61,766 nt of DNA from an uncultured Alphaproteobacteria bacterium. Lineage in GTDB: Bacteria; Pseudomonadota; Alphaproteobacteria; RF32; CAG-239. Below are positions 58,386-61,766 of the stretch, piece after piece. Position 1 is the first letter of the stretch. Each line of letters opens with the position of its first letter. The notes under the pieces are model-generated. The model searched no databases. It was not told where the DNA came from and saw only the letters and a program-made list of their open reading frames with translations. The stretch lies in NCBI GenBank assembly GCA_944391695.1, contig CALXUO010000005.1, positions 1 through 61,766 on the forward strand. The letters run 5' to 3'. The translations under genes and the position numbers were made by a program.

Positions 58386-59003
58386 ATGAAAACTAAACTT
58401 TTTGCTTTTATACTGACTGTTCTAACGGCTTTTTCTTTTAATGCCAATGCACAAGTTAATGCTCAGGCGGCCGAAAAATTTATTAAAGACACCACCGCCA
58501 AAGGGATTGAGCAAATCATCAATGCCAATATATCGCAGGCCGAAAAAGACAAGCGCTTTTATGATTTGTTAAACGGTGCTCTTGATTTGGATTTTATCGG
58601 ACAATTTGTATTGGGGCGCAACTGGCGAACCGCCACCCCAGAACAACGCAAAGAGTTTATTGCTGTTTATCGTGATCTAAATATTGCTACTTGGTCTAAG
58701 CGTTTTAACGAGTTTAAGGGCAAAAATTTTGTCTTCAAAGGTACAACACCTTCTTCTTCCAAAGGACAAATTTTTGTTGATACTGTTGTGCCGATGGACC
58801 AAGGAGAGCCGGCCAAAGTCGTTTGGCGTGTCAGAGAAAAAAACGGTGATTACAAAATCGTCGATATTATCATTGAAGGTGTGAGCCTGGCACAATCGGC
58901 CAGAAGCGAATATACCGCGTTTATCAAAAACAACCCCGGCGGTATTGATGCTTTGATTAAAGATTTGCAAGCCAAATTAAAAGCTCAAAAATCTACTAAA
59001 TAA
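58386..59003 (+). CDS. mlaC: MlaC/Ttg2D phospholipid-binding periplasmic protein
   Basis: Signal peptide, FVLGRNWR, KIVDIIIEGVSL; follows mlaA. Confidence 0.9.
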   Translation: MKTKLFAFILTVLTAFSFNANAQVNAQAAEKFIKDTTAKGIEQIINANISQAEKDKRFYDLLNGALDLDFIGQFVLGRNWRTATPEQRKEFIAVYRDLNIATWSKRFNEFKGKNFVFKGTTPSSSKGQIFVDTVVPMDQGEPAKVVWRVREKNGDYKIVDIIIEGVSLAQSARSEYTAFIKNNPGGIDALIKDLQAKLKAQKSTK

Positions 59004-59050: not shown

Positions 59051-60412
59051 TTAGGAGTTTCTTTGTGAAATTTTTATATCAATAATTTGTCCGGTATAAT
59101 CAGAAAGTGCTGTATCTAATGTTGTATCAGCAACTACTTGCGGTGATAGTAGAGATTCTTTTGGCTCAACGCCAAAATTTTTTAATCTCATAGGAGTGGC
59201 GGTTCTTTCCGGATTGATAATATTTACTCTGATAGAATCTTTCTCCCATTCTTCTGCCAGTGCTTGACTTAGATTTACTAGCGCTGCTTTGGTTGAGGAA
59301 TAAATGGAATAAAGAGCACGCCCCCTTGTATAAGAGCTTGAGGTAAAAAATATCAAACTACCTTTGGAGGCTTGTAAATAGTCGTATGCCAATCTTGCTA
59401 TATTTACACAACCAACATAATTAATATTTATTTCTTTATAAATATCCTCCAATTCTCTGGTATTAAGCTGCCCCATTCTCAAAACACCGGCAGTATTAAT
59501 AATAATATCTATCTTTCCTTCCAATTTTGCAACATGCTCCAGGGCTGATTTGATTTCTTTATAGTTACAAACATCCGTTCCGCTAGAACGAGAAAAACCA
59601 TAAACTTTGGCTTGGTAGCGCTTGCTAAGTTCAACAATGGCCTGGCCAATACCTTTGCTCGCTCCGAATACGACAATAACTTTATTTTTTAATCGTTTTT
59701 TATCTTGCGAAATGGTATATATATTTCTTAGTTGAAATAATTTATCTGCAATCGCAATATCAATGGGATATGTTATCTTGTGATTGAAATCATCTCCTTT
59801 AATTACATATATATCACATAAATTATATTTCAAAACCAAGCCGCAATCATCGGTTACATCAACATTATGGTCTTTATTGGCTAGTTCATGAGCTTTTTTA
59901 ATGACTGCTAAATCAAAAGCCTGCGGAGTTTGTCCGCGTTTTATAAAATCTCGTTTAAGAATCGATTTAATAATATTGTTGTTATCTATTGTAATTAACG
60001 TATCTGCCGAATCGATAGCAACATCTACGGCCTTATATTCATCAAGTTTTTGTAAACAATTGTCTATTATATCATTTGAGACAAAAGGTCGTACTGCATC
60101 ATGAATTAGTACTTTAGCTTGTGGTGCGGTTATAGAATTTATCCCTATGTAGGAGCTTTCTTGTCTGGTTGAACCTCCTGCCAAAATCTTGGATATTTTT
60201 TTATAATTATTCTTAATTACCATATCTTGAATATAGCTGATATAGTTAATGTGTGAAACTACAATTATTTCATCAACATTATCATTTTTTTCAAAAGTAG
60301 TAAGAGTATGTTCCAGAACTGTTTTGCCGGCAATTTTAATGAACTGTTTTGGCTTATTGAGCCCGGTGCGTTCGCCCTTTCCCGATGCTAAAATTATTGC
60401 TATATTTTTCAT
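59051..60412 (-). CDS. Bifunctional IspD/TarI-like cytidylyltransferase-SDR reductase (Bcs1-like CDP-ribitol synthase)
   Basis: ILASGKGER, PKQF, IHDAVRP, QTPQAF, TDD, KIT in the N-half; GASKGIG, NTAG, YSSTK, PERTATPMR in the C-half. Confidence 0.87.
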   Translation of the reverse strand: MKNIAIILASGKGERTGLNKPKQFIKIAGKTVLEHTLTTFEKNDNVDEIIVVSHINYISYIQDMVIKNNYKKISKILAGGSTRQESSYIGINSITAPQAKVLIHDAVRPFVSNDIIDNCLQKLDEYKAVDVAIDSADTLITIDNNNIIKSILKRDFIKRGQTPQAFDLAVIKKAHELANKDHNVDVTDDCGLVLKYNLCDIYVIKGDDFNHKITYPIDIAIADKLFQLRNIYTISQDKKRLKNKVIVVFGASKGIGQAIVELSKRYQAKVYGFSRSSGTDVCNYKEIKSALEHVAKLEGKIDIIINTAGVLRMGQLNTRELEDIYKEININYVGCVNIARLAYDYLQASKGSLIFFTSSSYTRGRALYSIYSSTKAALVNLSQALAEEWEKDSIRVNIINPERTATPMRLKNFGVEPKESLLSPQVVADTTLDTALSDYTGQIIDIKISQRNS

Positions 60413-61374
60413 TATAGCCTGCCTTTCAGTTCTTGCATTGTTGCATAATCTTCCGAATTAAAATTATCGTACATACTGTGACCTTTGGGAAGTTTCTTTG
60501 GATATGACATATAATTGCCATAATAGTCTTTAAGATAGCACTCAGGTTTGGCCATGGATTTAAATTTAATTCCTTCAAATATTGTATTTTTAATCGGATA
60601 TACAGTGTCATAGCGTAAAAACCAGTTAGGCTCACTGTGATCCCACTCAATACCCAATAAAATATCCGAACCTACTTTTGGGGCTGAGGTATTTATGTAT
60701 TTATTCTTTTCTTGCATTATGGTCGCAATAATGTTTGAAGTATTTTGCTTTTGAAGATTATGTCTAAATTTTTTGATTTCATTGGTATATTTTATTTGCT
60801 GTTTTACGGAATATTTGTTGCCGCTTATATCAAACGCAAAAACATCAATAAAAAATTTATCTGATTTTTTGCTGCGGATTTTTATAATGGAAGATGCTTG
60901 ATCAGCACTTATAAATTGTTCGGCATATAGGTCTTGTTGATGGGCTTTATTAAATTCAGTTAAAACTTTGTTATAGTCGCCTCTTTCCATTGCCACATCA
61001 ATATCATCATCCCAGGGGATAAAACCTTTGTGTCTTACCTGCCCCAAAGCAGAACCGGCAAACAAAACATAGCCAAGATTATTTTGACTGCAAAAAGCAT
61101 CAAACTGTTTAAGTATGGCCAAATTAGCCAGTTGCAAATCTCTTAATTTACCTTCGGCTTTAGGCAAATTTGTTATATCTAGTTTGTTTTTCTTATAATA
61201 GTAAAACGGATTACTATTCTTGGCCTTTATATATTCTTTTTTGGGATATCGCACCTTTAGACCGCAAAAAGTAAGTTGATTATGAGTTTTGGAAAATTCT
61301 TTGAACGAAAACAAATGAAACATATGTTGTGCAATTTTTTGCAAAACACAAATAGCTGATTTTTTATAGTCCAT
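60412..61374 (-). CDS. LicD-family phosphotransferase
   Basis: LRDLQLANL, GSALGQVRHKGFIPWDDDIDVAM, FIDVF, YLKDYYGNYM; start placed at the ATG of MDYKK. Confidence 0.9.
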   Translation of the reverse strand: MDYKKSAICVLQKIAQHMFHLFSFKEFSKTHNQLTFCGLKVRYPKKEYIKAKNSNPFYYYKKNKLDITNLPKAEGKLRDLQLANLAILKQFDAFCSQNNLGYVLFAGSALGQVRHKGFIPWDDDIDVAMERGDYNKVLTEFNKAHQQDLYAEQFISADQASSIIKIRSKKSDKFFIDVFAFDISGNKYSVKQQIKYTNEIKKFRHNLQKQNTSNIIATIMQEKNKYINTSAPKVGSDILLGIEWDHSEPNWFLRYDTVYPIKNTIFEGIKFKSMAKPECYLKDYYGNYMSYPKKLPKGHSMYDNFNSEDYATMQELKGRL

Positions 61375-61418
61375 ATTTATATTCCTCTGATAGTTCACTA
61401 CTAAAAAAATCGCGCGAT

Positions 61419-61577
61419 GAAGGCGACTGGAAGGTAGAAACTATTCAGACAAAATAGTGCGACATATTTGCTAATATATAGCTTATTTTGGCGCCTTCCA
61501 GTCTTAATATAGACCGTTAGGTGTGCAAAAACATCGTCTTTTGCACTAAAGACGTGTCTGAAAGAGGTTTCTACACC
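61419..61577 (-). ncRNA. Putative structured RNA element (pseudoknot-capable) in the licD leader
   Basis: Several 7-10 bp complementary pairs (listed under findings). The strand is inferred from the position upstream of licD. Confidence 0.4.
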
Positions 61578-61607
61578 CCAGAATATTCATCTTATATTCC
61601 GTTATTG

Positions 61608-61636
61608 AGGTTAGCTGTATTTTTTGTAAAAGTAAA
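61608..61636 (-). promoter_or_regulatory. Candidate sigma70 promoter for the licD operon
   Basis: Minus strand TTTACT-N17-TAACCT. Confidence 0.3.
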
Positions 61637-61651
61637 GCCTAAAATAGATAT

Positions 61652-61766
61652 CCCCCAGTAAACTGGGGGTTCTATAACAGCTACAAACCTTACGGTTTGA
61701 CCACGCTCGTTGGCGTGGAGCGGTGTTGTTCCAACACCTTGGCATTCAGCCCCGAGTAAACTCGGG
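61652..61766. mobile_element. Palindrome-rich non-coding element (IS200/IS605-type MITE or REPIN-like), cut by the window end
   Basis: Two CCCCnAG-TAAA-CTnGGGG hairpins (61652-61669 and 61750-end) enclosing three further hairpins. Confidence 0.5.

Follow-up and report, generated by a model that had tools for sequence, protein, structure and literature searches.

Positions 61400–61600 on the minus strand of the 61,766-nucleotide (nt) stretch of DNA analysed here (the window; contig CALXUO010000005.1 of an uncultured alphaproteobacterium of the order RF32) can be read with good confidence as the 5′ leader of a licD operon and as a member of an undescribed family of structured leader RNAs, about 195 nt long, with two mutually exclusive folds. 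A first-pass annotation had flagged positions 61419–61577 as a dense, pseudoknot-capable and switchable RNA-like structure and had suggested an undescribed cis-regulatory RNA for a surface-glycan operon, located between a candidate promoter and the licD start. This suggestion is upheld by the LicD protein encoded downstream, by a conserved promoter on one side of the element and the licD ribosome site on the other, and by the lack of any Rfam family at threshold. The flagged stretch is apparently one copy of a large family of pseudoknotted leader RNAs, and no published description of the motif was found in the literature. The box drawn around it lies inside the element, which is slightly larger, and it omits the P0 hairpin (61580–61600) as well as the 3′ arm of the terminator and its U-tract (61403–61418). 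The checks proposed at that stage, namely a scan against Rfam, a search for homologues and covariation, and a record of downstream gene classes, yielded no family over threshold, both homologues and covariation, and cell-surface genes among 68 downstream proteins compared with Pfam.

The RNA strand is the minus strand, which is the sense strand of licD, because the frequent G-U pairs of the structure would read A-C on the opposite strand. On this strand, the 202 nt from 61399 to 61600 fold at -61.5 kcal/mol, compared with -40.1 +/- 4.4 kcal/mol for 200 shuffles (z -4.9), and none of the shuffles equals this value; the plus strand of the same stretch gives a z of -5.2. The dense structure seen at first reading thus corresponds to a fold well below that of shuffled sequence (z about -5). 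All elements of the family are present in the window copy, which scores 167 bits.

The family was collected with a covariance model (R1) built from 26 copies that BLAST had retrieved from related genomes. R1 matched 46 of the 56 genomes of the genus, 82 of the 101 genomes of the order, with matches in all 19 genera sampled, and 30 of 401 genomes of the class (24 of 307 genera), nearly all of which are 0.9–2.5 Mb in size; the family also occurs in 20-odd other alphaproteobacterial families. One genus of the order reaches at least 25 copies per genome. Such copy numbers by R1 are underestimates, since the model missed a third, diverged copy in the genome of the window (locus L224; genome G000, C1:353-552, plus strand) that precedes a lipoprotein gene, scores 73.5 bits with the refined model R2 and 38.8 bits with the Rfam family RF02221, and has P1, P2 and P5 fully compensated as judged by eye. 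The second copy in the genome of the window lies on contig C24, about 30 nt upstream of a minus-strand gene for a Stealth-family capsule phosphotransferase. It is 72% identical to the window copy, with compensating changes in every long helix, and paralogues within the genome are at most 72% identical, so that the element is single-copy at the DNA level. The exact pattern GACYGGAAGGCRRYAAAATA was found at no fewer than 120 loci in 185,579 species genomes, and among the matches listed nearly all belong to metagenome-assembled "uncultured Alphaproteobacteria" from the guts of humans, rabbits, chickens, ruminants and deer; three matches to this pattern in other phyla were not confirmed by the covariance model.

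For the structure, 87 matches (82 distinct) were aligned to the model, and the copies counted below are these. The 41 modelled pairs are 97.7% paired, a percentage inflated by the fitting of the alignment to this very structure; 32 of the pairs carry double changes, 0 of 500 shuffles match any of these measures, and only 37–45% are paired when the partners are slid. P1, P2, S2, P4 and the kissing loops lie outside the model and were therefore tested separately. Covariation backs eleven helices, and about 40 unpaired positions are nearly invariant across bacterial families. The helices and their coordinates are given in Table 1.

Two of the separately tested helices join a hairpin loop to a distant partner. 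P1 is formed by the HpA loop and the strand 3′ of HpB; its six pairs are 99.2% paired, five of them with double changes, every Watson-Crick type occurs within a single column (A-U 36, G-C 16, U-A 16, C-G 12), and in a cognate-partner test 98% of copies pair best with their own partner. The 5′ strand of P2 occurs in 72 distinct versions and the 3′ strand in 69, and the P2 duplex reaches -8.2 kcal/mol with the cognate partner versus -1.6 kcal/mol with non-cognate ones. The cognate partner ranks first of 82 in the median copy and within the top 10% in 98% of copies. S2, between the P3 loop and the strand 3′ of P3, has at least six contiguous pairs in 59 of the 82 copies and many pair types (GUGUAAA/UUUGCAC, GCGAAAG/UUUUCGC, GCAUCAA/UUGAUGC), and all five pairs of P3 itself show double changes, as do four of six pairs in P6 and two of three in P7. 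The P0 loop AAGAUGA (61587–61593) is complementary to the terminator loop, and this kissing contact covaries (GAUGA/UCAUC, GAUAA/UUAUC, GGUGA/UCACC, UGGU/ACCA). An extension of P1 by CUGGGG with CUUCCAG was considered and is not supported; the variants CUGAGG and UUUAGG suit the local HpA stem instead.

The central evidence concerns segments that have two partners. Segment 2 (family consensus GACYGGAAGGC) may pair either with P4a, to give P4, or with segment 3 (family consensus CUUCCRGUC), to give P5, whose nine pairs are 99.7% paired, with U-A replaced by C-G in 22 copies and A-U by G-C in 2. Where position 4 of segment 2 is C, position 8 of P4a is G in every well-matched copy (13 of the 21 such copies), and where it is U, position 8 is G in 30 copies and A in 28. 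In the distant genus g95, P4a, segment 2 and segment 3 have changed jointly to GCCCUCAACC, GGUUGGAGGGC and AACCUCCAACC, respectively; in its copies L214–L219 (genomes G206 and G374; 0.9 Mb), GGAGG/CCUCC replaces GGAAG/CUUCC in segment 2, in segment 3 and in the real ribosome sites. Furthermore, the last three bases of segment 3 are the first three of the terminator stem (columns 298–300, common to P5 and the terminator), and column 299 covaries both with column 162 (P5) and with column 331 (terminator). Since one segment with two covarying partners implies two folds, the two-partner covariation of segment 2 and of the first terminator bases is direct evidence, at the level of sequence, of a switch. 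A nested energy model gives the fold with P4 and the terminator (Fold I) a lower energy than the P5 fold (Fold II) in 68 of 81 copies, with a median difference of 10 kcal/mol; with Fold I favoured in this way, read-through should need extra stabilisation from tertiary contacts and presumably from an effector.

All seven complementary pairings listed in the first-pass annotation are found in the window where it had placed them, and its crossing topology is real: GACTGGAAGG/CCTTCCAGTC crosses both GTAGAAAC/GTTTCTAC and TTCAGACA/TGTCTGAA. Its wording "pseudoknot-capable and switchable" is likewise justified, as the alternative helices each covary. Compensatory changes across the 82 distinct homologues maintain five of the seven pairings (P5, P1, P2, P3 and S2) and not the other two. 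Of the latter, CAAAATA/TATTTTG is specific to the window copy, most copies having four contiguous pairs there and 3 of 82 having seven, while GAAGGCG/CGCCTTC is possible in many copies without covariation, the terminator strand covarying with its own 3′ arm. As an antiterminator, GAAGGCG/CGCCTTC was rejected, segment 2 showing no matching change in the 10 copies in which the terminator strand becomes GUCACC. GTGCAAAA/TTTTGCAC and CGTCTTT/AAAGACG had been listed as mutually exclusive; both are kept, and a single H-type pseudoknot of which they are the two stems describes them better than pure alternation does.

Promoter, leader, terminator, ribosome site and gene form a self-contained cassette. 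The promoter boxes sit at a fixed distance upstream of P0 across the family, and transcription would start near P0. In the terminator, five of six stem pairs carry double changes, and at least 5 U lie within the 8 nt past the stem in 80 of 82 copies. In 73 of 82 copies, a co-oriented open reading frame (ORF) of at least 60 codons begins a median of 23 nt past the element. These genes have distinctive ribosome sites: GGAAG occurs in 43% of them versus 1.4% of other long ORFs of the window genome, and GGAAGU in 32% versus 0.5%. A GGAAGU-type ribosome site is the exact complement of the invariant AACUUCC with which segment 3 starts.

A possible mechanism can be proposed for this cassette, in which a sigma-70-type promoter would be followed by the leader, the intrinsic terminator, the ribosome site and the gene. 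In Fold I (OFF), P4a would hold segment 2, while P1 and P2 would close a multi-helix junction; the terminator could then form, with its loop kissing the P0 loop, and in most copies the freed segment 3 (AACUUCC) could also mask the GGAAGUU ribosome site of the gene. In Fold II (ON), segment 2 and segment 3 would form P5, generating a three-way junction of P5, P6 and HpB, and P5 would capture the three bases with which the terminator stem starts, leaving the ribosome site free. The assignment of ON to Fold II is inferred. A cellular signal, most likely a small molecule or an ion, may shift the balance of the folds by binding the pseudoknotted core, and the same signal would co-ordinate many surface genes. 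A small molecule or ion is favoured because of the size of the RNA, its invariant unpaired positions and its three tertiary contacts.

Several points weigh against this account of the leader. Besides the inflated pairing percentage, P1 and P2 as well as HpA and HpB all covary; instead of alternating, these could be present together as a double pseudoknot, and the exact contents of the two folds are uncertain. The window copy is a weaker example of the family, with a terminator stem of 5 base pairs (bp) and a loop of 9 nt, one C-U mismatch in P6, 8 of 11 pairs in P4 and a ribosome site, GAGGAA, that fits segment 3 over four bases only. It may depend on termination alone, or it may leak more than most copies. 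Promoter, termination and read-through are all deduced from the letters of the genomes, and gene-presence tests for c-di-GMP (cyclic di-GMP), CsrA and a NusG paralogue identified no ligand or factor for the leader.

Comparison with known RNAs points to one distant relative. Rfam 15 gave no family at threshold, whether for the window copy or for 26 homologous loci; a permissive scan of the window copy found nothing within the element, and a gathering-threshold scan of 12 homologous loci returned tRNA and rRNA only. RF02221 (sRNA-Xcc1, a small RNA) has no match on the window copy at E <= 10, and none of the 101 order genomes reaches its gathering score of 53 bits, the best match scoring 47.6 bits. 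The C24 paralogue scores 39.3 bits, and sub-threshold matches recur at the 3′ domain in 75 of the 101 order genomes, where the RF02221 model aligns over its full length (model positions 1–87) with P5, P6 and HpB on its three helices. Both RNAs have a three-way junction with a G+C-rich closing helix of 9 bp (P5 in the 3′ domain of the leader), a short junction strand, a left arm with an AAUA...AAUAU internal loop (P6/P7) and a right hairpin (HpB). Unlike sRNA-Xcc1, the leader is over twice as long, occurs in different hosts before a different gene set, possesses a 5′ domain (P0, HpA, P3/S2, P4) whose pairing partners are the junction strand and the HpB loop, and includes its terminator in the fold. 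The 3′ domain is therefore treated as a distant structural relative of sRNA-Xcc1, and the whole leader as a new family.

Two features of riboswitches in general are found in the leader: a conserved, covarying structured domain in the 5′ untranslated region, and an expression platform of exclusive helices that overlap the terminator and/or the ribosome site. H-type pseudoknot aptamers include those of the preQ1-II, SAM-II/V and fluoride riboswitches. P3/S2 resembles them in layout, with a stem 1 of 5–7 bp, a loop 1 of 1–3 nt, a stem 2 of 6–9 bp and an A-rich loop 3. Unlike these aptamers, it forms just a single module within a much larger RNA and has no Rfam match, and the likeness is one of layout only. 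It can tentatively be proposed that the family is a new riboswitch class, with a double-pseudoknot sensor built on an sRNA-Xcc1-like junction, responding to a global signal other than c-di-GMP and governing an RNA-only regulon of up to dozens of surface-antigen genes, and that sRNA-Xcc1 is a minimal form of the sensor rather than a trans-acting small RNA; this proposal as a whole is possible but doubtful.

Polysaccharide and surface operons are often governed by antiterminator proteins, NusG paralogues or CsrA-type control, and a switch set by a protein or another RNA (an antiterminator protein, an RfaH/LoaP/UpxY-like NusG paralogue, or CsrA acting on GGA motifs) would suit both the genes downstream of the leader and its GGA-containing segments. 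The architecture also has much in common with PyrR- and T-box-type leaders and with OFF/ON riboswitches, in that four successive segments pair as 1:2 and 3:4 to the exclusion of 2:3; as in PyrR- and T-box-type attenuators, a terminator and U-tract directly precede the ribosome site and the sensor domain is conserved. Unlike in those attenuators, about 60 nt and two enclosed helices separate segments 2 and 3 of the leader, and its sensor consists of two loop-to-strand pseudoknots plus a kissing contact to the terminator loop. The leader is larger, and its tertiary fold more complex, than the usual binding sites of protein-dependent attenuators. None of the 26 genus genomes carries more than one NusG-family gene (PF02357), and 24 of them have exactly one; CsrA is above the cut-off in 0 of 26 genomes, and the HpA loop does not conserve its GGA, which covaries freely. 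An RNA-binding protein other than those examined would fit the data too, and control by a protein or another RNA is unlikely rather than implausible. Attenuation by a leader peptide starting from the NUG in the P0 loop was rejected, as 22 of 82 copies have no start codon there, ORF length varies between 3 and 52 codons and the copies do not keep a common frame; unlike attenuators, the leader lacks a conserved leader peptide.

It is also conceivable that no signal exists and that the leader is a constitutive attenuator, a rheostat in which the strength of P2, P4 and the terminator fixes the expression level of each surface gene. P2 is hypervariable in both sequence and length, P4 is fully paired in some copies and mismatched in others, and terminator strength differs between copies, all of which would be expected of such a device. 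The roughly 40 nearly invariant unpaired positions and the three maintained long-range tertiary contacts are hard to explain if the RNA is passive, and make a rheostat quite unlikely.

The genes behind the leader, comprising pilins, adhesin-like outer-membrane proteins and surface glycans, resemble a classic c-di-GMP regulon, which raises the question of a new c-di-GMP riboswitch class. Like the c-di-GMP-I and -II riboswitches (GEMM-I, RF01051; c-di-GMP-II, RF01786), the leader occurs in many copies per genome before pilin, adhesin and surface-polysaccharide genes and combines terminator control with ribosome-site control. All 26 genus genomes encode GGDEF proteins, as do 28 of the 30 other genomes that carry the motif. 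However, G206 and G374, the g95 genomes introduced above (99–100% complete), carry no GGDEF domain at E <= 0.001, yet each has 2–4 bona fide leaders with the full architecture and compensated helices; the leader is thus kept in a genus without the domain. Neither GEMM-I nor GEMM-II gave an Rfam match, and no likeness to the c-di-GMP classes in sequence or structure was found. A c-di-GMP sensor is therefore disfavoured, and very unlikely.

If the leader were instead a relative of sRNA-Xcc1 in function as well as in form, it would be a stand-alone trans-acting small RNA that ends at its own terminator, and the downstream gene would be a mere neighbour. sRNA-Xcc1, unlike the leader, is described as a trans-acting small RNA. 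It was detected as an 88-nt RNA in Xanthomonas, with a mechanism that is not known (PMC2996969), and in Xylella it is found as tandem copies (PMC12189769). The sub-threshold matches of the 3′ domain to RF02221 would suit such a role, and with the terminator hairpin belonging to the tertiary fold, a terminated leader could be a stable RNA. Against this, the short distance from the element to the co-oriented ORF in 73 of 82 copies leaves no space for a second promoter, the ribosome sites co-evolve with segment 3, and segments 2 and 3 have alternative partners. Moreover, sRNA-Xcc1 itself, in Xanthomonas integron cassettes, lies upstream of and co-oriented with symE (10.1101/2025.06.18.660453), a placement before a co-oriented gene that the leader shares. 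A trans-acting role for the leader has very little probability. The non-coding end of a mobile element, a miniature inverted-repeat transposable element or a self-cleaving ribozyme, the first and last of which the first-pass annotation had entertained, is hardly credible: the fold is dense and a multi-copy repeat adjoins, but the near-identical repeat begins only at 61640, with its boundary outside the promoter, paralogues of the leader have diverged as described above, plasmid and phage collections hold nothing similar, no ribozyme or insertion-sequence family of Rfam is matched, and the covariation reflects long-term selection on RNA pairing.

The leader family precedes a wide range of genes. 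Among the 68 non-redundant downstream proteins scanned against Pfam, 14 match OMP beta-barrel (with further matches to Opacity 9, OmpA-like 10 and Surface_Ag_2 6), 6 Glycosyltransferase family 2, 4 Type IV pilin (PilS/Bundlin), 2 Stealth and 1 LicD. Group 1/4 glycosyltransferases also occur, many more proteins have a prepilin leader as judged by eye, and lipoproteins are numerous; the leaders of g95 precede cysteine-rich secreted proteins and lipoproteins. Regulation of a glycan operon, as suggested by the first-pass annotation, fits licD here, and the regulon extends far beyond it to outer-membrane proteins, pilins and lipoproteins. In the window, licD is followed by a fusion gene that overlaps it by one base, and judging from this domain pair, the probable role of the operon is to produce a CDP-activated polyol and to attach its phosphate ester to a surface glycan. 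The pair converges on an MlaC gene at 58386–59003.

Some further variation was noted within the family and beside the leader. Copies L051, L052 and L086/L117 have insertions of 40–60 nt in P7, which accordingly tolerates large extensions, like the peripheral helices of riboswitches. In L094, L099, L101, L115, L116 and L140, a conserved short reading frame beginning MHQKNVRFLQHFF lies 2 nt past the end of the model in place of the normal ribosome site and gene, and may be a further structured segment or encode a small protein. Upstream of the leader, positions 61640–61766, up to the end of the window and of the contig, are a near-identical repeat found in at least 14 other places of the assembly, mostly at contig ends and, in contig C43, beside tRNA genes. 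It contains two hairpins, CCCCCAGUAAACUGGGGG and CCCCGAGUAAACUCGGGG; the first of these together with AUAUCUAUUUU has a terminator-like score on the minus strand, about 15 nt upstream of the -35 box of the leader, and the repeat may insulate the leader promoter.

Table 1. Coordinates of the leader elements, the expression signals and the operon genes in the window
Feature	Position	Strand	Description
-35 hexamer	61631–61636	-	TTTACT; conserved CTTTAC[T/A] upstream of 82 copies; 17 nt from -10
-10 hexamer	61608–61613	-	TAACCT; consensus TATAAA/TATAGA; conserved T.A...T at the same distance; about 7 nt before P0
Whole leader RNA	61400–61600	-	end-to-end covariance-model match: R1 167.3 bits, E 4e-47 (E-values of the study's own models are rough); R2 153.8 bits
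P0 hairpin	61580–61600	-	6 pairs, all with double changes
HpA hairpin	61564–61579	-	GGGG[UGUAGAAA]CCUC; 4 pairs, all with double changes, 99.4% paired; loop is the P1 5′ strand
P2 5′ strand	61555–61562	-	UUCAGACA; hypervariable; pairs with 61444–61451 (HpB loop)
H-type pseudoknot P3 + S2	61523–61554	-	P3, 61548–61554 with 61535–61541; S2, 61539–61546 with 61523–61530
P4a	61512–61522	-	ACCUAACGGUC; first of two alternative segment 2 partners, "anti-antiterminator"
Segment 2	61493–61503	-	GACUGGAAGGC; mimic of a ribosome-binding sequence; partner P4a or segment 3
P6 with P7	61459–61494	-	P6 (GCGCCA/UGUCGC) around a conserved AAAAUA...AAUAU loop and variable P7 (61470–61482)
HpB hairpin	61440–61458	-	ACUAU[...]AUAGU; 3 of 4 pairs with double changes, 99.4% paired; loop is the P2 3′ strand
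P1 3′ strand	61434–61440	-	UUUCUAC; pairs with HpA loop 61568–61574
Segment 3	61425–61434	-	CCUUCCAGUC; anti-ribosome-site-like; P5 3′ strand, "antiterminator"
Putative intrinsic terminator	61403–61427	-	stem GUCGC/GCGAU, loop CUUCAUCGC, then U7 (61403–61409); weaker than most copies
licD ribosome-binding sequence	61382–61387	-	GAGGAA; read from sequence
licD-family phosphotransferase gene	60412–61374	-	likely start ATG 61374; Pfam LicD E 1.4e-28
IspD-type cytidylyltransferase/short-chain dehydrogenase fusion gene	59051–60412	-	operon gene 2; Pfam IspD 5.5e-47, adh_short 2.9e-32

With hundreds of natural variants and clean covariation, the family is well suited to structure determination. If the proposed reading is true, the catalogue of riboswitches would gain an unusual orphan class with two loop-to-strand pseudoknots, an H-type pseudoknot and a contact to the terminator loop, and the widely annotated but functionally obscure sRNA-Xcc1 family could be re-interpreted. 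It would also mean that, throughout an order of abundant uncultured gut and rumen bacteria, one RNA device governs much of the cell surface, the part of these organisms that hosts, phages and neighbours see, and the signal, once found, would give a handle on the physiology of organisms that have never been grown.

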